IMG/VR virus record: IMGVR_UViG_2740892234_000013
Length of the DNA: 10,321 bases
DNA from: a virus
Lineage: Duplodnaviria; Heunggongvirae; Uroviricota; Caudoviricetes
Strand: one strand, 5' to 3'
Shown: one piece after another, positions 1-10,321 of the stretch
Layout of the letters: every line of letters begins with the position of its first letter
Numbering within the stretch: the first letter of the stretch is position 1
The notes under the pieces: generated by a model
Told to the model about the DNA's origin: nothing
Databases searched by the model: none
The model's input: only the letters and a program-made list of their open reading frames with translations
Program-made: the position numbers and the translations under genes

Positions 1-408
1 ACCTCTTTCTCAGGGAGTTTAGTCTCCAGGATTCCCGGGGCGGTTCAGTTTGAAACTGGTGATAATGGCAATGAATATTTTAAATGGCGCATCAGGTCTG
101 GCAGCACAACAAAAGATCTGATGACGCTTAAGTCTGATGCACTACGGGTTACCGGGCAGGTGATACCATCAAATTTCAGCAATTTTGACTCCCGCTATGT
201 CCGGGATCTCCGACTTGGTGGTGCAGCCACATACAAACCTGCGAACAATGGCATGACATGGACACATCAGGCACCGTCCGGGTGTGTATATACCGGCATT
301 ATTGTTCAGGATACCGGCTCAAACTCTGCCGATAACATTGGTGGCGTATATTACAGACCGGTTCAGAAATACATTAACGGGACATGGTACAACGTGGCGC
401 AGGTATAA
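1..408 (+). CDS. Tail fibre protein, C-terminal portion (5' end upstream of window)
   Basis: Frame 1 is open from base 1 with no stop until TAA at 406-408, so the 121..408 ORF in the track is only the tail of a longer gene. It lies immediately upstream of a Tfa gene with a 3-nt gap, the standard fibre/chaperone arrangement; by synteny it is the P2 H equivalent. Confidence 0.7.
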   Translation, partial: TSFSGSLVSRIPGAVQFETGDNGNEYFKWRIRSGSTTKDLMTLKSDALRVTGQVIPSNFSNFDSRYVRDLRLGGAATYKPANNGMTWTHQAPSGCVYTGIIVQDTGSNSADNIGGVYYRPVQKYINGTWYNVAQV

Positions 409-411
409 TTT

Positions 412-939
412 ATGCAGCATTTGATAAATATAACGGCAGGTAATCCAAAAACGGTTGAACAATATCAATTGACAAAGGACTTTGATGTTGTCTGGTTTTT
501 TACAGAAGATGGTAAGAACTGGTACGAAGAACAAAAGTATTTTGCTGATGACACGATAAAAATAGCGTACGACAAAGATAATATTATCCGCTATGTAGAA
601 AAGGATGTGACAGCTATCAGACCGGATGGATTAAGTGTTGTTGAAGTGCCGGATATTACTGCTAATCGACGGGCGGACATTTCAGGGAACTGGATGTTTA
701 AGGACGGTACAGTGATTAAACGAATTTATACGGCAGAGGAATTGCAGCAGCAGGCAGAAAATCGGAAAGCCAGACTTCTTGCAGATGCTGAATCCGTGAT
801 TTTGCCGCTGGAGCGCGCGGTCAGACTGAACATGGCAACAGATGAGGAGCTTAGCCGACTGGAAGCATGGGAACGCTACAGCGTTCTGGTCAGTCGTGTG
901 GATCCTGCAAATCCTGAATGGCCGGAAATGCCGCAATAA
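412..939 (+). CDS. tfa: Tail fibre assembly protein (Tfa family chaperone; P2 G position)
   Basis: 175 aa. The N-terminus ([30 protein letters not shown]...GKNWYEE) and C-terminus ([27 protein letters not shown]) are characteristic of the Tfa family as I recall it. Position directly after the tail-fibre gene. Confidence 0.85.
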
Positions 940-1160
940 GTTGTATGATCTCTGGAGTGAGCAAACGTATCTATGGCACAGAGTAAAGCCTAATCTGACA
1001 GGCCGCTCTGTGTCTGGAGTAGATTTTAGTAAAGCATTATTTTATTAGTGCAAATTCTAATCAATACATTTTATGTATATGATATCCTGCAGACTTTAAT
1101 GACTTGGTTTAGGCTAACCAGATAACACTGAAGGAATATTTTTGATAATTAAGGTACGGT

Positions 1161-1754
1161 ATGTTTACTAAGCGACGATTAAAAAATATTAACTGGGAGG
1201 CAAGTTCAGTGATTCTTGCTATGGTTCTCTTTGTTGGAAATATATTTTATACAAATCATCGTGATGATATAAGCATGGAGGCTGAGAGGGACAGTATCAG
1301 AACAATGTTTGCATATGAAATCACTAATAACCATCGCGCTCTCACTTTTCTTGATAAAACGAGATATATTGGCTTTGACGAAAATTCGGAGCATTTTGTT
1401 GGCGAGCCTTTTGCCATTAATGTCAAATCATTAGGGGGGCCTCGCTTACAGATTGCATTAAACCAGACTGATAAAGTGTTTAAATCCTACTTCAGCGAAT
1501 TAAGTAAGCTTGATAAAGAGGATGTTACTCTTCTTATGGACTATTACCATGAGCAAAGCATCCTGCTGGAGCGTGTAAAATCTACGTTACAGAAGATGAA
1601 AAGTGGTAATGATATTAAAGTTGATATTGATGGTTACTTATTAGAAGAACACTTCATGAATGAGCTTAATCTTTCTAATATTTTGCTTAAACGCTATAGC
1701 CATTTGTTGTCACAATACGCTAAAGAACATAAAACAAAAGATTTACATAATTGA
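1161..1754 (+). CDS. Hypothetical membrane-anchored protein of unknown function; cargo (moron) gene at the Z/fun-equivalent position
   Basis: 197-aa ORF with an AAGG Shine-Dalgarno at 1151-1154, 6 nt before the ATG. The N-terminus has basic residues (KRRLK) followed by one hydrophobic segment (SSVILAMVLFVGNIFY), i.e. a probable signal-anchor or uncleaved signal. The rest is hydrophilic and contains no Cys. The region is AT-rich: I counted 18 G+C in the 60 nt 1201-1260 versus 38 in 2101-2160 inside FI. I recognise no known family. Confidence 0.6.
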   Translation: MFTKRRLKNINWEASSVILAMVLFVGNIFYTNHRDDISMEAERDSIRTMFAYEITNNHRALTFLDKTRYIGFDENSEHFVGEPFAINVKSLGGPRLQIALNQTDKVFKSYFSELSKLDKEDVTLLMDYYHEQSILLERVKSTLQKMKSGNDIKVDIDGYLLEEHFMNELNLSNILLKRYSHLLSQYAKEHKTKDLHN

Positions 1755-1960
1755 TAATCTGCTAATGGTTATTCATGGGGTAACTATGTTTTATATGTAA
1801 TCCAACTCAGATGAATTATTGATTCTGGATAATAACCGCAGAGCGGCATATACCCTGACAGGCAAATGTCCGCTTCTTGTTCAAAGCAGACTGTCAGATT
1901 TGATAACTTTTGGGCTATGTAAATTGTCAGTCGGAAAATGAGTGAGTTCAAATCAGGACA

Positions 1961-1987
1961 GGCGGGCGAATTGCCCGCCTTTTCTTT
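1961..1987 (+). terminator. Rho-independent terminator downstream of the cargo gene
   Basis: Perfect 7-bp GC-rich stem GGCGGGC (1961-1967), loop GAATT, GCCCGCC (1973-1979), followed by TTTTCTTT (1980-1987). Confidence 0.7.
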
Positions 1988-1989
1988 AT

Positions 1990-2060
1990 CTGTTGTTTCA
2001 TCCACTGACCAGCCAGGTCAAATAGCGTCTCATGCTCTGCACAACAGAAAATAGTTGCAC
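1990..2060 (+). promoter_or_regulatory. Candidate late promoter region for the FI-FII-E-T-U-D operon (P2 P_F equivalent, Ogr-dependent)
   Basis: Located between the terminator and the FI start, where P2 has P_F. Contains TGTTGT (1991-1996), a perfect dyad TGACC-AGCCA-GGTCA (2006-2020) and ACAACA (2041-2046). I could not place an exact TGT-N12-ACA Ogr element, so the coordinates are approximate. Confidence 0.3.
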
Positions 2061-2083
2061 CCATTAACCACGGAGTTAAACGG

Positions 2084-3274
2084 ATGAGTGACTATCATCA
2101 CGGCGTGCAGGTGCTGGAGATTAACGACGGCACCCGCGTCATTTCCACCGTATCCACGGCCATTGTCGGCATGGTCTGCACGGCCAGCGATGCGGATGCG
2201 GAAACCTTCCCCCTCAATAAACCGGTGCTGATTACCAACGTGCAGAGCGCAATTGCAAAGGCCGGTAAAAAAGGCACGCTGGCGGCGTCGTTGCTGGCCA
2301 TCACTGACCAGTCAAAACCGGTCACCGTTGTCGTGCGCGTGGAAGACGGCAACGGCGATGACGAAGAAACGAAACTTGCGCAGACCGTTTCCAATATCAT
2401 CGGCACCACCGACGAAAACGGTCAGTACACCGGACTGAAAGCACTGCTGGCGGCGGAGTCGGTAACCGGTGTTAAACCGCGTATTCTCGGTGTGCCGGGA
2501 CTGGACACCAAAGAGGTTGCCGTCGCACTGGCATCAGTCTGTCAGAAGCTGCGCGCTTTCGGGTATATCAGCGCATGGGGCTGTAAGACCATTTCCGAGG
2601 TGAAAGCCTACCGCCAGAATTTCAGCCAGCGTGAGCTGATGGTCATCTGGCCGGATTTCCTCGCATGGGATACGGTCGCCAGTACCACCGCCACCGCGTA
2701 TGCCACCGCCCGTGCGCTGGGTCTGCGCGCTAAAATCGACCAGGAGCAGGGCTGGCATAAAACGCTGTCCAACGTCGGGGTGAACGGTGTTACCGGCATC
2801 AGCGCGTCCGTATTCTGGGATTTGCAGGAGTCCGGCACCGATGCTGACCTGCTTAACGAGTCAGGCGTCACAACGCTGATTCGCCGTGACGGTTTCCGCT
2901 TCTGGGGTAACCGTACCTGCTCTGATGACCCGCTGTTCCTCTTTGAAAACTACACCCGCACCGCGCAGGTGCTGGCCGACACGATGGCTGAGGCGCACAT
3001 GTGGGCGGTGGACAAGCCCATCACCGCAACGCTGATTCGCGACATCGTTGACGGCATCAATGCCAAATTCCGTGAGCTGAAAACAAACGGCTATATCGTG
3101 GATGCGACCTGCTGGTTCAGCGAAGAATCCAACGATGCGGAAACCCTCAAGGCCGGAAAACTGTATATCGACTACGACTATACACCGGTGCCTCCTCTCG
3201 AAAACCTGACCCTGCGCCAGCGTATTACCGATAAATACCTGGCAAATCTGGTCACCTCGGTTAACAGCAATTAA
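2084..3274 (+). CDS. FI: Contractile tail sheath protein (P2 gpFI)
   Basis: 396 aa, the same length as P2 FI. GGAG Shine-Dalgarno at 2072-2075. First gene of the conserved FI-FII-E-T-U-D block. Confidence 0.9.
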   Translation: MSDYHHGVQVLEINDGTRVISTVSTAIVGMVCTASDADAETFPLNKPVLITNVQSAIAKAGKKGTLAASLLAITDQSKPVTVVVRVEDGNGDDEETKLAQTVSNIIGTTDENGQYTGLKALLAAESVTGVKPRILGVPGLDTKEVAVALASVCQKLRAFGYISAWGCKTISEVKAYRQNFSQRELMVIWPDFLAWDTVASTTATAYATARALGLRAKIDQEQGWHKTLSNVGVNGVTGISASVFWDLQESGTDADLLNESGVTTLIRRDGFRFWGNRTCSDDPLFLFENYTRTAQVLADTMAEAHMWAVDKPITATLIRDIVDGINAKFRELKTNGYIVDATCWFSEESNDAETLKAGKLYIDYDYTPVPPLENLTLRQRITDKYLANLVTSVNSN

Positions 3275-3286
3275 GGAGCCTGACCG

Positions 3287-3805
3287 ATGGCAATGCCGCG
3301 CAAACTCAAGTTAATGAACGTCTTTCTGAACGGCTACAGCTATCAGGGCGTTGCAAAGTCCGTCACGCTGCCAAAACTGACCCGTAAACTCGAAAACTAT
3401 CGCGGTGCGGGGATGAACGGAAGCGCACCGGTAGACCTCGGCCTTGATGACGATGCGCTGTCAATGGAGTGGTCGCTCGGTGGTTTCCCGGATTCGGTTA
3501 TCTGGGAGCTTTACGCAGCAACCGGTGTGGATGCCGTGCCGATTCGTTTTGCAGGCTCTTACCAGCGCGACGATACCGGCGAAACGGTGGCCGTCGAGGT
3601 GGTCATGCGTGGACGTCAGAAAGAAATCGACACCGGCGAGGGTAAACAGGGAGAAGACACCGAGTCGAAAATCTCCGTGGTCTGCACCTATTTCCGGCTG
3701 ACGATGGACGGTAAGGAGCTGGTCGAAATCGACACCATCAACATGATTGAGAAGGTGAACGGCGTCGACCGGCTGGAGCAACACCGCCGCAATATCGGCC
3801 TGTAA
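3287..3805 (+). CDS. FII: Tail tube protein (P2 gpFII)
   Basis: 172 aa, the same length as P2 FII. AAGGAG Shine-Dalgarno at 3272-3277. Immediately follows the sheath gene. Confidence 0.9.
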   Translation: MAMPRKLKLMNVFLNGYSYQGVAKSVTLPKLTRKLENYRGAGMNGSAPVDLGLDDDALSMEWSLGGFPDSVIWELYAATGVDAVPIRFAGSYQRDDTGETVAVEVVMRGRQKEIDTGEGKQGEDTESKISVVCTYFRLTMDGKELVEIDTINMIEKVNGVDRLEQHRRNIGL

Positions 3806-3861
3806 TTTTCATCCGGTCAGCCTGGCTGACCGGTTAACCCCGATTCAGAAGTGAGAAAACC

Positions 3862-4137
3862 ATGAACAAAGAAAATGTGATTACCCTGGACAATCCGGTC
3901 AAGCGTGGTGAGCAGGTTATCGAACAGGTCACGCTGATGAAACCCAGTGCGGGGACGCTGCGCGGTGTCAGTCTGGCTGCGGTCGCAAACTCAGAAGTCG
4001 ATGCACTGATTAAGGTGCTGCCGCGCATGACGGCACCGATGCTGACCGAGCAGGAAGTCGCCGCGCTGGAACTGCCTGACCTTGTGGCGCTGGCCGGTAA
4101 GGTGGTCGGTTTTTTGTCGCCGAACTCGGTGCAGTAA
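3862..4137 (+). CDS. E: Tail assembly chaperone gpE (in-frame product)
   Basis: 91 aa, the same length as P2 gpE. Sits between tube and tape-measure genes and ends just after a TTTTTTG slippery heptamer. Confidence 0.9.
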   Translation: MNKENVITLDNPVKRGEQVIEQVTLMKPSAGTLRGVSLAAVANSEVDALIKVLPRMTAPMLTEQEVAALELPDLVALAGKVVGFLSPNSVQ

Positions 4138-4289
4138 CGTTCCCGAAAAATCTGTCGGTCGATGACCTGATGGCGGATGTGGCAGTGATATTTCACTGGC
4201 CGCCATCAGAACTGTATCCCATGAGCCTGACCGAACTCATCACATGGCGCGAAAAGGCGCTCCGGCGAAGCGGAAACACGAATGAGTAA
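3862..4289 (+). CDS. E+E': Tail assembly chaperone gpE+E' made by a -1 programmed frameshift at 4110-4116
   Basis: After the T-run the -1 frame is open to TAA at 4287-4289. My translation of that frame is FVAELGAVTFPKNLSVDDLMADVAVIFHWPPSELYPMSLTELITWREKALRRSGNTNE, which matches the P2 E' extension as I recall it. The stop overlaps the T start codon at 4282. Confidence 0.8.
4110..4116 (+). other. Slippery heptamer TTTTTTG for the E/E' -1 frameshift
   Basis: T(4110) TTTTT(4111-4115) G(4116), 21 nt before the gpE stop. Equivalent to the G/GT and E/E' shift sites of lambda and P2. Confidence 0.75.
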
Positions 4290-6729
4290 CAATGTAAAAT
4301 TACAGGTATTGCTCAGGGCTGTTGACCAGGCATCCCGCCCGTTTAAATCCATCCGCACAGCGAGCAAATCGCTGTCGGGGGATATCCGGGAAACACAAAA
4401 ATCACTGCGCGAGCTGAACGGTCAGGCATCCCGTATTGAGGGATTTCGCAAGACCAGTGCACAGCTCGCCGTGACTGGTCATGCACTTGAAAAGGCACGG
4501 CAGGAGGCCGAAGCCCTTGCCACACAGTTTAAAAACACCGAACGTCCGACACGTGCTCAGGCGAAAGTGCTGGAATCAGCAAAGCGTGCGGCGGAGGACT
4601 TACAGGCGAAATATAACCGCCTGACGGATTCCGTTAAACGCCAGCAGCGGGAACTGGCCGTTGTGGGAATTAATACCCGCAATCTTGCACATGATGAGCA
4701 GGGACTGAAAAACCGTATCAGTGAAACCACCGCACAGCTTAACCGTCAGCGTGACGCGCTGGCGCGTGTCAGTGCGCAACAGGCAAAACTTAACGCAGTA
4801 AAACAGCGTTATCATGCTGGCAAGGAACTGTCCGGAAATATGGCCTCAGTGGGCGCTGCCGGTGTGGGGATTGCGGCGGCGGGAACGATGGCCGGAGTTA
4901 AGCTGCTGATGCCCGGTTATGAGTTTGCGCAGAAAAACTCAGAATTGCAGGCCGTGCTCGGTGTGGCAAAAGATTCCGCCGAAATGGCCGCGCTCCGCAA
5001 ACAGGCGCGCCAGCTCGGCGACAATACCGCCGCCTCAGCGGATGATGCGGCCGGTGCGCAGATTATCATTGCGAAAGCGGGTGGGGATGTTGATGCCATT
5101 CAGGCGGCAACGCCGGTCACGCTGAACATGGCGCTGGCGAACCGCCGCACGATGGAAGAAAACGCCGCCCTGCTGATGGGGATGAAATCCGCCTTTCAGC
5201 TTTCAAACGATAAGGTCGCTCATATCGGGGATGTTCTCTCCGTGACGATGAACAAAACCGCCGCCGATTTTGACGGCATGAGCGATGCGCTGACCTATGC
5301 CGCACCTGTGGCAAAAAATGCCGGTGTCAGCATTGAAGAAACCGCCGCAATGGTCGGGGCGCTGCATGATGCAAAAATTACAGGCTCAATGGCGGGGACG
5401 GGAAGCCGTGCCGTGTTAAGTCGCCTGCAGGCACCAACGGGAAAAGCATGGGATGCACTCAAAGAGCTTGGCGTGAAAACCTCAGACAGCAAGGGAAACA
5501 CCCGGCCAATATTTACCATTCTGAAAGAAATGCAGGCCAGTTTTGAGAAAAACCGGCTCGGTACTGCCCAGCAGGCGGAATACATGAAAACTATTTTCGG
5601 GGAGGAGGCCAGCTCAGCCGCCGCCGTGCTGATGACTGCCGCCTCAACCGGAAAACTGGACAAACTGACCGCTGCGTTTAAAGCCTCAGACGGGAAGACT
5701 GCCGAGCTGGTAAATATCATGCAGGACAACCTCGGCGGTGACTTTAAGGAGTTTCAGTCCGCTTATGAGGCGGTAGGGACAGACCTGTTTGACCAGCAGG
5801 AAGGCGCACTGCGTAAGCTCACACAGACGGCCACAAAGTATGTGTTAAAACTCGACGGCTGGATACAGAAAAACAAATCACTGGCGTCAACCATTGGCAT
5901 CATTGCCGGTGGCGCGCTGGCGCTTACTGGCATCATCGGTGCAATTGGTCTTGTAGCCTGGCCGGTTATCACCGGCATCAATGCCATCATCGCGGCAGCA
6001 GGCGCAATGGGTGCAATCTTCACGACGGTTGGCAGTGCCGTTATGACTGCTATCGGGGCGATTAGCTGGCCGGTTGTGGCAGTGGTGACCGCGATTGTCG
6101 CCGGGGCGTTGCTTATCCGTAAATACTGGGAGCCTGTCAGCGCATTCTTTGGCGGTGTGGTGGAAGGGCTGAAAGCGGCATTTGCGCCGGTGGGAGAACT
6201 GTTCACGCCACTGAAGCCGGTGTTTGACTGGCTGGGGGAAAAGTTACAGGCTGCGTGGCAGTGGTTTAAAAACCTGATTGCACCGGTCAAAGCCACCCGG
6301 GACACCCTGAACCGTTGCCGTGACACGGGCGTCATGTTCGGGCTGGCACTGGCTGACGCGCTGATGCTGCCGCTTAATGCGTTCAACAAATTACGCAGCG
6401 GCATTGACTGGGTACTGGAAAAGCTCGGGGTCATCAACAAAGAGTCAGACACACTTGACCAGACCGCCGCCAGAACTCATGCCGCCACGTATGGCACCGG
6501 TGGTTATATTCCGGCGACCAGCTCTTATGCAGGCTATCAGGCTTATCAGCCGGTCACGGCACCGGCTGGCCGCTCTTATGTGGACCAGAGTAAAAACGAA
6601 TATCACATCAGCCTGACGGGTGGTACTGCACCGGGGACACAGCTTGACCGCCAGTTACAGGATGCGCTCGAAAAATACGAGCGGGATAAACGTGCGCGCG
6701 CCCGTGCCAGCATGATGCATGACGGTTAA
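4282..6729 (+). CDS. T: Tail tape measure protein (P2 gpT)
   Basis: 815 aa, the same length as P2 T. Coiled-coil-like Q/R/A-rich N-terminus and a long Gly/Ala/Ile-rich hydrophobic central segment (GIIAGGALALTGIIGAIGLVAWPVITGINAIIAAAGAMGAIFTTVGSAVMTAIGAISWPVVAVVTAIVAGALL), typical of tape-measure proteins. Confidence 0.9.
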   Translation: MSNNVKLQVLLRAVDQASRPFKSIRTASKSLSGDIRETQKSLRELNGQASRIEGFRKTSAQLAVTGHALEKARQEAEALATQFKNTERPTRAQAKVLESAKRAAEDLQAKYNRLTDSVKRQQRELAVVGINTRNLAHDEQGLKNRISETTAQLNRQRDALARVSAQQAKLNAVKQRYHAGKELSGNMASVGAAGVGIAAAGTMAGVKLLMPGYEFAQKNSELQAVLGVAKDSAEMAALRKQARQLGDNTAASADDAAGAQIIIAKAGGDVDAIQAATPVTLNMALANRRTMEENAALLMGMKSAFQLSNDKVAHIGDVLSVTMNKTAADFDGMSDALTYAAPVAKNAGVSIEETAAMVGALHDAKITGSMAGTGSRAVLSRLQAPTGKAWDALKELGVKTSDSKGNTRPIFTILKEMQASFEKNRLGTAQQAEYMKTIFGEEASSAAAVLMTAASTGKLDKLTAAFKASDGKTAELVNIMQDNLGGDFKEFQSAYEAVGTDLFDQQEGALRKLTQTATKYVLKLDGWIQKNKSLASTIGIIAGGALALTGIIGAIGLVAWPVITGINAIIAAAGAMGAIFTTVGSAVMTAIGAISWPVVAVVTAIVAGALLIRKYWEPVSAFFGGVVEGLKAAFAPVGELFTPLKPVFDWLGEKLQAAWQWFKNLIAPVKATRDTLNRCRDTGVMFGLALADALMLPLNAFNKLRSGIDWVLEKLGVINKESDTLDQTAARTHAATYGTGGYIPATSSYAGYQAYQPVTAPAGRSYVDQSKNEYHISLTGGTAPGTQLDRQLQDALEKYERDKRARARASMMHDG

Positions 6730-6743
6730 GGAGGTGACGAAAA

Positions 6744-7223
6744 ATGATGCTCGCGTTAGGTATGTTTGTTTTTATGCGCCAGACGCTGCCACACCAGACC
6801 ATGCAGCGTGAATCAGATTATCGCTGGCCGTCAAATTCCCGTATCGGTAAACGGGATGCCTACCAGTTTCTCGGCGTTGGTGAGGAAAACATGACGCTTG
6901 CCGGTGTGCTTTATCCCGAACTGACCGGCGGCAAGCTGACGATGACCACGCTCAGGATGATGGCTGAGGAAGGCCGGGCGTGGCCGTTGCTGGATGGCAC
7001 CGGCATGATTTACGGCATGTATGTTATCAGCAGGGTGAGTGAAACAGGGAGTATTTTCTTTGCAGACGGCACACCCCGGAAAATTGATTTTACGCTGTCG
7101 CTCACCCGCGTTGATGAATCACTGGCCGCGCTTTATGGCGATATCGGTAAACAGGCGGAGTCGCTCATCGGTAAGGCTGGCAGTATGGCGACCAGATTCA
7201 CGGGTATGACGGGGGCGGGATAA
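6744..7223 (+). CDS. U: Tail protein gpU (tail terminator/completion)
   Basis: 159 aa, the same length as P2 U. Strong AAGGAGGTGA Shine-Dalgarno at 6727-6736. Its stop overlaps the D start by 1 nt (TAATG). Confidence 0.9.
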   Translation: MMLALGMFVFMRQTLPHQTMQRESDYRWPSNSRIGKRDAYQFLGVGEENMTLAGVLYPELTGGKLTMTTLRMMAEEGRAWPLLDGTGMIYGMYVISRVSETGSIFFADGTPRKIDFTLSLTRVDESLAALYGDIGKQAESLIGKAGSMATRFTGMTGAG

Positions 7224-8386
7224 TGCTGGATGCGCTGACATTTGATGCAGGCAGTACGCTGACGCCGGATTACATGCTGATGCTCGACAGCAGGGATATT
7301 ACCGGCAATATCAGCGACCGTCTGATGAGCATGACTCTGACGGATAACCGGGGCTTTGAGGCTGACCAGCTTGATATTGAACTGAACGATGCCGACGGGC
7401 AGGTCGAACTGCCGGTTCGTGGCGCTGTCCTGACGGTGTATATCGGCTGGAAAGGTTTTGCCCTGGTATGCAAAGGGAAATTCACCGTTGATGAGGTAGA
7501 ACACCGGGGCGCGCCGGATGTGGTCACCATCCGGGCCCGGAGTGCAGATTTTCGTGGCACGCTCAATTCCCGCCGTGAAGGCTCCTGGCATGACACCACG
7601 CTCGGTGCGATTGTTGAGGCGATAGCCTCCCGTAACAGGCTGGAAGCCAGTGTCGCTCCGTCACTGGCCGGAATTAAAATCCCGCACATCGACCAGTCGC
7701 AGGAGTCTGATGCTAAATTCTTGACCCGTCTTGCTGAACGCAACGGCGGTGAGGTGTCGGTAAAAATGGGAAAACTGCTGTTTCTCAAAGCGGGGCAGGG
7801 GGTGACGGCCAGCGGTAAAAAAATCCCGCAGGTCACCATCACCCGCAGCGACGGTGACCGCCATCATTTTGCGATTGCTGACCGTGGAGCCTACACCGGC
7901 GTAACGGCGAAGTGGTTACACACCAAAGACCCGAAGCCGCAAAAGCAGAAGGTAAAACTGAAACGCAAAAAGAAAGAGAAACACCTGCGCGCACTGGAGC
8001 ACCCCAAAGCGAAACCGGTCACGCAGAAGAAAGCGCCAAAAGTACCGGAAGCGCGCGAAGGTGAATACATGGCCGGTGAAGCTGACAACGTTTTTGCCCT
8101 GACTACGGTATATGCCACAAAAGCGCAGGCCATGCGCGCCGCTCAGGCAAAGTGGGATAAGCTGCAACGGGGCGTTGCGGAGTTCTCCATCAGTCTGGCT
8201 ACTGGTCGGGCAGATATTTACACGGAAACGCCGGTCAAAGTGTCAGGCTTTAAGCGCGTCATAGACGAGCAGGACTGGACAATCACTAAGGTGACACATT
8301 TTCTGAATAATAGCGGCTTCACGACGTCCTTAGAGCTTGAGGTCAGGCTTTCTGATGTGGAGTACGAAACAGAAGATGATGAGTGA
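7223..8386 (+). CDS. D: Tail protein gpD (late control gene D, tail hub/baseplate-proximal)
   Basis: 387 aa, the same length as P2 D. Translationally coupled to U. Last gene of the tail operon, before ogr. Confidence 0.9.
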   Translation: MLDALTFDAGSTLTPDYMLMLDSRDITGNISDRLMSMTLTDNRGFEADQLDIELNDADGQVELPVRGAVLTVYIGWKGFALVCKGKFTVDEVEHRGAPDVVTIRARSADFRGTLNSRREGSWHDTTLGAIVEAIASRNRLEASVAPSLAGIKIPHIDQSQESDAKFLTRLAERNGGEVSVKMGKLLFLKAGQGVTASGKKIPQVTITRSDGDRHHFAIADRGAYTGVTAKWLHTKDPKPQKQKVKLKRKKKEKHLRALEHPKAKPVTQKKAPKVPEAREGEYMAGEADNVFALTTVYATKAQAMRAAQAKWDKLQRGVAEFSISLATGRADIYTETPVKVSGFKRVIDEQDWTITKVTHFLNNSGFTTSLELEVRLSDVEYETEDDE

Positions 8387-8404
8387 TGTTTTTATTTTAT
8401 CTGT

Positions 8405-8433
8405 TTGTTTTGTAAGGGTAAATTAACTAAAAT
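8405..8433 (+). promoter_or_regulatory. Candidate sigma70 promoter for ogr
   Basis: TTGTTT (8405-8410), 17-bp spacer, TAAAAT (8428-8433), about 35 nt upstream of the ogr ATG. Confidence 0.35.
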
Positions 8434-8467
8434 GGCACCATCAACAAAACCGGAAGAGGTGCTCGCG

Positions 8468-8686
8468 ATGTTTCATTGTCCTTTATGCCAGCATGCCGCA
8501 CATGCGCGTACAAGCCGCTATATCACTGACACGACAAAAGAGCGTTATCACCAGTGCCAGAACGTGAATTGCAGCGCCACGTTCATCACTTATGAGTCGG
8601 TACAGCGATACATCGTGAAGCCGGGAGAAGTCCACGCCGTGAGGCCGCACCCGTTGCCGTCAGGGCAGCAAATTATGTGGATGTAA
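8468..8686 (+). CDS. ogr: Late-gene transcriptional activator Ogr (C4 zinc-finger)
   Basis: The 72-aa product from the internal ATG at 8468 starts MFHCPLCQHAAHARTSRYITDTTKERYHQCQNVNCSATF, i.e. a CxxC...CxxxxC zinc-binding pattern and the Ogr/Delta family N-terminus. GGAAGAGG lies just upstream. The 93-aa ORF in the track from 8405 is probably an over-extension. Confidence 0.85.
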   Translation: MFHCPLCQHAAHARTSRYITDTTKERYHQCQNVNCSATFITYESVQRYIVKPGEVHAVRPHPLPSGQQIMWM

Positions 8687-8698
8687 TTACAAACAGAA

Positions 8699-8724
8699 AG
8701 CCCCTCAGTCGAGGGGCTTTTTTT
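8699..8724 (+). terminator. Rho-independent terminator after ogr
   Basis: Stem AGCCCCTC (8699-8706), loop AGTC, GAGGGGCT (8711-8718), then a run of 7 T. Confidence 0.8.
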
Positions 8725-8788
8725 GTCGATGTGGTCAATGTGTGGACGTGACCAGAAATAAATCCTTTTATTTCAATTTGTTGTACGT

Positions 8789-8815
8789 AAAAAATAAGCC
8801 CGTGTAAGGGAGATT
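8789..8815. other. attR: P2 att core (attR crossover region), prophage/host boundary
   Basis: AAAAAATAAGCCCGTGTAAGGGAGATT matches the 27-bp P2 attP/attB core as I recall it. It lies after ogr, where P2 attP is located, and coincides with the 3' end of cyaR. Confidence 0.7.
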
Positions 8816-8875
8816 ACACAGGCTAAGGAGGTGGTTCCTGGTACAGCTAGCATTTTATGGGTTATGTTTTTCAGC
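8789..8875 (-). ncRNA. cyaR: CyaR (RyeE) small regulatory RNA, Hfq-dependent and CRP-activated
   Basis: The reverse complement of 8789-8875 reads GCTGAAAAACATAACCCATAAAATGCTAGCTGTACCAGGAACCACCTCCTTAGCCTGTGTAATCTCCCTTACACGGGCTTATTTTTT (87 nt), which matches the CyaR sequence as I recall it, including the CCTCCTT motif. The terminator hairpin is GCCTGTGTAA/TTACACGGGC plus a U-tract. Confidence 0.75.
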
Positions 8876-8930
8876 GAAACGGATGATAACCTTAATAAAT
8901 ACAGCTGTATGTGATCGGTTTCTAAGAATT
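8876..8930 (-). promoter_or_regulatory. cyaR promoter with candidate class II CRP site
   Basis: On the - strand, TATCAT sits at 8888-8883 (about -13 to -8 from a 5' end at 8875). A TGTGA half-site at 8910-8914 places a 22-bp CRP window centred at about -41.5; the second half-site (TTTCT) is weak. Confidence 0.4.
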
Positions 8931-8959
8931 TTCCATCCGGGAAAAATAATCGAAATTAA

Positions 8960-10321
8960 TCACTTACCGTGGGGATTACGCGTGGTTTCCCCGGAGAAAT
9001 TACGCATCAGCAGCGCGTAATTGAGCTCAAGATCCTGCGGGACCGGGAGCCACACAGTATAACCATCGCCTGGTGCTATCGGCATAGCTTCGCCTTTGGC
9101 GTTTTCCATGTGCTCAAGGGTAAAATTAATGTTGCCTTGCGGCGTCATCAGCTCAAGGCTGTCGCCAACGGAGAATTTATTTTTCACCGCTACCGCCGCG
9201 AGGTCCCCCTTGCGCTCACCGGTAAACTCACCAACAAACTGCTGGCGGTCAGAAACTGAATAACCGTATTCGTAGTTCTGATAATCGTCGTGAGTATGAC
9301 GACGCAGGAAACCTTCGGTATAGCCACGATGCGCCAGGCCTTCCAGGGTTTCCAGCAGGCTGGTGTCAAACGGTTTGCCCGCAGCGGCGTCATCAATAGC
9401 TTTGCGGTAAACCTGTGCGGTGCGTGCGCAATAGTAGAAAGATTTGGTACGGCCTTCGATTTTCAGCGAATGCACGCCCATTTTGGTCAGGCGTTCTACA
9501 TGGGCGATAGCGCGCAGATCTTTCGAGTTCATGATGTAAGTGCCGTGCTCATCTTCAAACGCGGTCATATACTCGCCCGGACGCTGGGCTTCTTCGATCA
9601 TAAACACTTTGTCGGTTGGTGCGCCGATACCCAGCGTCGGCTCAACATTTTGCACCGGAATCGGCTCGTACTTGTGTACGATGTTGCCAACATCATCTTC
9701 TTTCCCTTCCTGGACGTTGTACTCCCAGCGGCAGGCGTTGGTGCAGGTGCCCTGGTTCGGGTCGCGCTTGTTGATATAGCCAGAGAGCAGGCAGCGACCG
9801 GAGTAGGCCATGCACAGCGCGCCGTGCACGAAGATCTCTACCTCCATATCCGGCACCTGATTGCGGATCTCTTCAATCTCTTCCAGCGACAGCTCGCGAG
9901 AGAGGATCACGCGGGTCAGTCCCATTTGCTGCCAGAATTTCACCGTCGCCCAGTTCACGGCGTTAGCCTGTACCGAGAGATGGATCGGCATTTCAGGGAA
10001 GTGCTCCCGCACCAGCATAATCAGCCCCGGATCGGACATAATCAGCGCATCCGGCCCCATTTCCACCACCGGTTTCAGGTCACGGATAAAGGTTTTCAGC
10101 TTGGCGTTGTGCGGTGCAATGTTGACCACGACATAAAACTTTTTCCCCAGCGCGTGGGCTTCATTGATGCCGAGCTGAAGATTTTCGTGGTTGAATTCGT
10201 TGTTGCGCACACGCAGGGAATAACGCGGCTGGCCCGCATAAACAGCATCTGCGCCATAAGCGAAAGCGTAACGCATATTTTTCAGCGTTCCCGCCGGGGA
10301 AAGGAGTTCCGGTTTAAACAT
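8960..10321 (-). CDS. trhP: U32-family peptidase-like protein YegQ/TrhP (prephenate-dependent tRNA U34 hydroxylation)
   Basis: Complete 453-aa ORF whose start codon is the last 3 nt of the window on the - strand. The sequence (MFKPELLSPAGTLKNMRYAFAYGADAVYAGQPRYSLR...) matches E. coli YegQ as I recall it, which is also 453 aa. GC-rich host-like composition. Confidence 0.85.
   Translation of the reverse strand: MFKPELLSPAGTLKNMRYAFAYGADAVYAGQPRYSLRVRNNEFNHENLQLGINEAHALGKKFYVVVNIAPHNAKLKTFIRDLKPVVEMGPDALIMSDPGLIMLVREHFPEMPIHLSVQANAVNWATVKFWQQMGLTRVILSRELSLEEIEEIRNQVPDMEVEIFVHGALCMAYSGRCLLSGYINKRDPNQGTCTNACRWEYNVQEGKEDDVGNIVHKYEPIPVQNVEPTLGIGAPTDKVFMIEEAQRPGEYMTAFEDEHGTYIMNSKDLRAIAHVERLTKMGVHSLKIEGRTKSFYYCARTAQVYRKAIDDAAAGKPFDTSLLETLEGLAHRGYTEGFLRRHTHDDYQNYEYGYSVSDRQQFVGEFTGERKGDLAAVAVKNKFSVGDSLELMTPQGNINFTLEHMENAKGEAMPIAPGDGYTVWLPVPQDLELNYALLMRNFSGETTRNPHGK

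Follow-up and report, generated by a model that had tools for sequence, protein, structure and literature searches.

Recombination of phage P2 by its integrase (Int), IHF and Cox is known from the work of Yu and Haggard-Ljungquist, and the preferred P2 site of E. coli C is called locI. Integration at the 3' end of an RNA gene, with regeneration of the gene, has been described for phage 186 in tRNA-Ile, for Fels-2 and SopE-phi in ssrA, and at ryeB/sdsR in Salmonella (PMC3448106, PMC3603311, PMC3333887). For P2-type elements, the paper on the E. coli W genome gives 'cyaR RNA' as the insertion site in its Table 2 (PMC3032704); the site is occupied there by Wphi2 (P2) in W, by ogr-D' in K-12 and by P2*B in B. 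According to Bobay et al., ryeE of E. coli was already known as a phage target (PMC3603311, which cites Wassarman et al. 2001 and, for ryeB in Salmonella, Balbontin et al. 2008). On the basis of these secondary citations and of the annotated P2 GenBank record, cyaR/ryeE is already known as a P2 insertion site; the general principle, in which phages target a conserved RNA gene at its 3' hairpin and bring along a copy that restores the gene, is textbook knowledge, and the cyaR/ryeE case is published.

The locus described here lies in a window of 10,321 nucleotides, which is the whole stretch of DNA that was analysed. Positions 8726-8824 are almost certainly the attR (P arm, core and B') of a P2-type (Peduovirus) prophage, integrated at the 3' end of cyaR, between yegR and yegQ, in the classic E. 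coli P2 site, by means of a heterobivalent tyrosine integrase (Table 1). As in the tRNA, tmRNA and sRNA systems, the phage brings along the 3' end of a structured RNA gene, so that integration rebuilds the gene, but here the terminator of an Hfq-dependent sRNA is used instead of a tRNA, and only 27 nt are duplicated. With P2 attP/attB it shares the identical 27-bp core, a near-identical ogr terminator and P arm, and the order D-ogr-att; the window prophage is a relative of P2 and not P2 itself, being 98.5% identical to it over D-ogr-att and having another cargo ORF between FI and the tail-fibre assembly gene. In K-12, the cryptic P2 remnant (ogrK, D') has the same P arm, core and cyaR-yegQ side (97.4% over 8600-9100), but keeps only about 0.6 kb, comprising the D' fragment and ogrK, in contrast to the full late region of the window. 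The practical value of the assignment lies in annotation, as it gives the exact right end of a P2-type prophage, with cyaR intact in the lysogen.

Table 1. Features of the window and the corresponding features annotated in the P2 record (AF063097).
Sequence	Feature	Position	Strand	Basis
Window	P2-type (Peduovirus) prophage late (tail) region	1..8686	+	Pfam, PHROG, OkiPb01681 gene order
Window	Tail fibre, 3' end	first gene of the region	+	PHROG
Window	Tail-fibre assembly	412-939	+	PHROG
Window	197-aa cargo ORF	1161-1754	+	PHROG 3829, function unknown
Window	Sheath FI	2084-3274	+	Pfam
Window	Tube FII	3287-3805	+	Pfam
Window	E	3862-4137	+	P2 gene order
Window	Tape measure T	4282-6729	+	Pfam
Window	U	6744-7223	+	Pfam GpU
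Window	D	7223-8386	+	Pfam GPD
Window	ogr	8468-8686	+	Pfam Ogr_Delta
Window	ogr / F operon intrinsic terminator (hairpin 8697-8720, then T run)	8697..8724	+	P2 annotation 24265-24288; terminator scan
Window	Int arm-type binding region, P arm (predicted)	8726..8753	+	homologous base for base to P2 'Int, P arm' 24293-24320
Window	IHF binding region, P arm (predicted)	8757..8790	+	homologous to P2 'IHF' 24324-24357
Window	att core (O): attP/attB identity, predicted strand exchange region	8789..8815	+	exact unique 27-mer; P2 attP; direct repeat in lysogens
Window	cyaR (ryeE) sRNA gene	8789..8877	-	Rfam match 8792-8877; U tract extends to 8789
Window	cyaR intrinsic terminator (11-bp stem, 6-nt loop, then UAUUUUUU)	8797..8824	-	terminator scan, RNAfold, Rfam structure line
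Window	yegQ/trhP (peptidase U32 family, tRNA U34 hydroxylase), B' side	8960..10321	-	Pfam Peptidase_U32 and C-terminal domain; yegQ/trhP in all matching genomes
P2 record	rho-independent terminator for ogr transcript and F operon	24265-24288
P2 record	Int 'P arm'	24293-24320
P2 record	IHF	24324-24357
P2 record	Int 'attP core'	24356-24383
P2 record	Cox	24399-24472
P2 record	int	24462-25475	opposite strand
P2 record	Int 'P' arm'	24470-24496

Core, junctions and the lysogens compared

The 27-mer AAAAAATAAGCCCGTGTAAGGGAGATT occurs as a single exact copy in the window (8789-8815, + strand), and its chance expectation was 0 in 200 dinucleotide-preserving shuffles, even with three mismatches tolerated. 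It is identical at 27 of 27 positions to the attP feature of phage P2 (AF063097, 24356-24382); in the extracted loci, the P2 attP copy of the core lies at L001 1989 and the empty attB copy at L005 2502. The boundaries of the junction were set by three independent alignments: with P2, with prophage-free E. coli, and of an attL query with empty sites. When positions 8300-8900 were compared by megablast with phage records, the P2 match (98.5% identity, query 1-516) stopped at window position 8815. When positions 8600-9100 were compared in the same way with 5426 complete E. coli genomes, the match of prophage-free strains started at query 189/190, equivalent to window 8788/8789, and with the attL query the match of the empty-site genomes ended on the last base of the core. 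The overlap between the phage match and the host match consists of the 27-mer and one fortuitous T at 8788; a T precedes the core in both attP and attB, giving an identity of 28 bp (8788-8815) in this comparison.

In the sequences compared, phage attP and host attB share the 27-bp core, and in the lysogens it is duplicated as a direct repeat, with attL (B-O-P') adjoining int and attR (P-O-B') adjoining ogr, the attR copy keeping cyaR complete and unchanged. By analogy with P2, Int, as a heterobivalent tyrosine recombinase, would bind both arm and core sites, IHF would bend the P arm, and Int and IHF on attP would exchange strands with attB inside the core. Excision would be the recombination of attL with attR and would also require Cox, the sites of which are expected in the P' arm, at the other end of the prophage.

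The closest complete genome among the 5426 was OkiPb01681, with 97.6% identity over 48-10321. UTAK-18 was 100% identical at the junction and 97.5% identical over 1993-10321, while window positions 1-1992 were unrelated, with no match in the UTAK-18 prophage region compared; over the 247 nt compared around the core, neither strain differed from the window. When the flanks were placed in register, P2 had the structure P-O-P' and the empty site of strain B1S11 the structure B-O-B', whereas the window and the ogr ends of the lysogens were P-O-B' (attR) and the int ends of UTAK-18 and OkiPb01681 were B-O-P' (attL), with a P' arm equal to that of P2 over the 110 nt compared.

An earlier note on this DNA, made from the letters of the sequence, had proposed looking for a second core at the other end of the prophage and for the empty site in a prophage-free strain. 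A core copy was indeed found at the attL of both relatives: the cores form direct repeats 30,286 bp apart in UTAK-18 (L003 9584 and L002 20190) and 31,172 bp apart in OkiPb01681 (L004 34103 and 2931), with the second core located between yegR and the integrase gene (1014 or 1002 nt). Both genomes, viewed in full, carry complete prophages with int and attL. The prophage-free B1S11 has one core, in the order yegR, core/cyaR, yegQ, and its host flank, on the cyaR-yegQ side, is 100% identical to the window. The same note had placed phage sequence at lower coordinates and host sequence at higher ones, in agreement with the P2-order late genes on the left and cyaR and yegQ/trhP on the right, and had seen no integrase in the window, which also holds; in the relatives the integrase gene adjoins attL, and C and cox are found at that end together with int.

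On the host side, past the right-hand end of the window, a ParD/ParE-RelE toxin-antitoxin pair is situated between yegQ and yegP in UTAK-18 (L002 21825-22419), OkiPb01681 (L004 728-1322) and B1S11 (L005 4137-4731), and is absent from K-12; the yegQ-yegP interval is a second variable spot beside the att locus.

Among the 5426 complete E. coli genomes, an attR-type junction (whole query covered, ogrK and yegQ) was present in 1168, an attL-type junction (B-O-P'-int) in 812, and at least 80% of the whole window in 778. Both junctions were found in about 812 genomes (~15%), which represent P2-type lysogens at the cyaR site, and a K-12-like remnant with attR only in about 350-356; the remaining genomes, most of the 5426, were empty, in a count that pools remnants with empty sites through the joining of pieces. 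In K-12 itself, the left junction consists of the B arm and attL core positions 1-18, fused straight to the gene D fragment (D').

With about 350 genomes carrying such a remnant, attR alone is therefore no proof of an excisable prophage, and the window, which holds no integrase gene, could belong to a defective element of the K-12 ogrK-D' kind, only larger, from which the int-attL end had been lost and which could not excise. The excess of some 356 genomes with attR and without attL speaks for this explanation, as does K-12, which is exactly of that type, its attL core running into D' at position 18. It is nevertheless improbable: the late region of the window is uninterrupted over 8.8 kb, the gene lengths compared are those of OkiPb01681, with U, D and ogr as in P2, genomes with at least 80% of the window (n = 778) are close in number to those with attL (n = 812), and the two relatives viewed in full are complete. 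The attR of a P2-type prophage remains the preferred reading, and, judging from the relatives, int and attL presumably lie at the other end of the window's own prophage as well.

The cyaR terminator as integration site

CyaR/RyeE (RF00112) was the only Rfam match above threshold in the whole window, with 100.7 bits against a gathering score of 47 (E = 9.9e-20; 8792-8877, minus strand, model 1-85/85). The minus-strand RNA from 8877 to 8789 folds (RNAfold MFE) into three hairpins, the last of which is the terminator (8824-8797), and the core corresponds to the last 24-27 nt of CyaR: all 11 nt of the 3' stem half with UAUUUUUU after them, the 6-nt loop, and 2 nt from the 5' half of the stem. By eye only, a TCACA half-site and a -10-like hexamer, TATCAT, were noticed on the minus strand upstream of 8877.

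These results agree, both by Rfam and by terminator mapping, with the claim of the earlier note that the 27-bp core sits exactly at the 3' end of cyaR, on the opposite strand. The note had further held that an sRNA terminator serves as attB and that the core supplied by the phage restores the sRNA 3' end, and this claim was borne out as well: H33 is 100% identical to the window over 8788-9100, and because lysogen and empty site have the same cyaR sequence, integration regenerates the 3' end of the gene. Loop, U tract and 3' stem half of the terminator all come from the core, and the sRNA is therefore rebuilt unchanged.

The proposal that core and cyaR overlap by an inconsequential coincidence of adjacent features, the insertion being merely in an intergenic spacer, could draw on a 2011 survey of P2-like sites, in which P2-type integrases insert 'between other genes' and cyaR/ryeE is unmentioned (PMC3448106), but it is hardly credible given that the core falls within the Rfam match to CyaR and provides the terminator parts listed above, and that in Escherichia, Shigella, Kluyvera and Enterobacter-labelled genomes alike the exact 27-mer always forms the 3' end of cyaR, with freely variable sequence on its other side. 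Integration into the cyaR 3' end itself is the reading retained, and the distribution of the core fits its conservation through a role in the sRNA.

The P arm and the phage late region

The P arm contains two direct repeats, TGTGGTCA (8730-8737) and TGTGGACG (8741-8748), both of which fit the arm-site consensus of P2-type integrases, tgTGGaCa (PMC3448106); in the P' arm of P2, TGTGGACA is present twice. A predicted IHF-like motif, TTTCAATTTGTTG, with one mismatch to WATCAANNNNTTR, is located at 8771-8783, between the arm repeats and the core. The window and P2 align without gaps from the terminator T run to the core, and the P-arm features of P2 therefore map to 8726-8753 (Int) and 8757-8790 (IHF). 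Only two differences from P2 were detected in the stretch from terminator to core, one extra T in the T run (8718-8724, seven T against six in P2) and a G for A (at about 8780) that falls in the N spacer of the IHF motif, neither of which affects a consensus position. The 63 bp at 8726-8788, which had been predicted to be a P arm carrying integrase and IHF sites, coincide with the Int and IHF footprints of P2 and would thus have that role, as far as homology tells. The P arm is flanked by two convergent intrinsic terminators, those of the ogr/F operon and of cyaR, which would insulate the two transcription units from each other.

Two P2-like phages with another core and another integrase (996 nt), P24E6b (L028) and vB_YpM_46 (L029), had the same sequence as P2 over the ogr terminator, the two Int arm repeats and the greater part of the IHF footprint, and diverged from it about 13 nt before the core (compared with window 8687-8860); the boundary of the swapped int/att module therefore falls within the IHF site. 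In the K-12 and E. ruysiae remnants, variation was likewise seen in just those last 13 nt before the core.

The late genes of the window have the order and lengths of those annotated in the OkiPb01681 prophage, and the lengths of U, D and ogr equal those in the P2 record. The 197-aa ORF had no match in Pfam or PADLOC and matched, over its full length, only the unannotated PHROG 3829; its slot, between the tail-fibre assembly gene and FI, is the one where P2 carries the non-essential Z/fun gene. In UTAK-18 the position of this ORF is occupied by a 'recombinase family protein', and the tail-fibre genes there lie on the opposite strand, which may point to an invertible segment.

A probable relic P arm in empty Escherichia sites

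In all 'empty' Escherichia sites examined, about 60 nt of the host arm resemble a decayed copy of the P arm. The B arm of the empty site in B1S11 reads AAGGGAGATT-cta-TCGATGTGGTCAATG-gaagACGgTGACCAG-ggatagggcttatgcat, followed by the core; this stretch lies at L005 2442-2501, and equivalents were found to the left of the core in L006 (2500-2558), L012, L013, L024 and L027. Local alignment of the P arm (window 8726-8788) with the B arm gave a score of 38; the highest score among 2000 shuffles was 28. The segment TCGATGTGGTCAATG, which includes the first Int arm-type repeat, matches at 15 of 15 positions between P arm and B arm and is followed by ACG.TGACCAG. In Escherichia sp. MOD1-EC7003 the stretch aligns collinearly with all 63 nt of the P arm and has ATAAATCCTTcTgTTTCATTG from the IHF region, while E. 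coli and Shigella have the same stretch minus 16 nt, as a deletion.

A scan for the exact 27-mer, with one genome per species, yielded 21 loci. About a dozen were in Kluyvera and two in records labelled Enterobacter hormaechei; the others were in Escherichia, Shigella, E. ruysiae and a genome from an Escherichia cryptic clade. cyaR was to the right of the core in 20 of the 21, the remaining one (L020) being the attL copy of the E. ruysiae prophage. P2-type prophages of Kluyvera carry the P arm, and native Kluyvera flanks, with yegS 74 nt from the core, are without it. Because P24E6b, vB_YpM_46 and the Kluyvera prophages carry the P arm and the native Kluyvera flanks do not, it is a feature of the phage lineage. 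The opposite origin of the likeness, by phage capture of host DNA, was considered less likely, as P2-like phages with another core and integrase share the P arm up to about 13 nt before the core, and the Kluyvera prophages, unlike native Kluyvera flanks, carry it as well.

From these comparisons, we favour, with some reserve, the interpretation that the 'empty' Escherichia P2 site is the scar of an ancient P2-like attR, its B arm being a decayed P arm. If so, each present-day integration at this site would recombine attP with a degenerate attR, and the surviving arm-type site could add to the strong preference of P2 for the cyaR site. The relic may represent a novelty, if a modest one, and would amount to a small evolutionary footnote.

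The 10-nt segment AAGGGAGATT (L005 2442-2451), which precedes the relic by 3 nt, is a copy of core positions 18-27, and the break after core position 18 in K-12 (L006 2558-2577) coincides with the start of this partial core. The shared breakpoint is suggestive, though unproven, of Int cleavage or of the overlap region within the core. A reading of AAGGGAGATT as a partial attL core is tentative, its left extension aligning unconvincingly with core positions 1-17.

In Kluyvera, the exact 27-mer of E. coli and P2 is likewise the 3' end of cyaR. Small inserted genes were observed between yegS and the core in five Kluyvera and Enterobacter hormaechei-labelled loci (L009, L010, L017, L018 and L025); in several Kluyvera this stretch holds a HicB-like antitoxin gene or a Gp49/HI1420 addiction module, and in one Enterobacter-labelled record a gene of the 2-thiouracil desulfurase family. 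In three of these loci (L009, L017 and L018) the stop codon of the inserted gene lies inside the core. L008 and L026 have P2-type P arms, which points to P2-like prophages at cyaR in Kluyvera-type genomes. As the left side of the core varies between genera, the 3' end of cyaR bounds a variable region in several of them.
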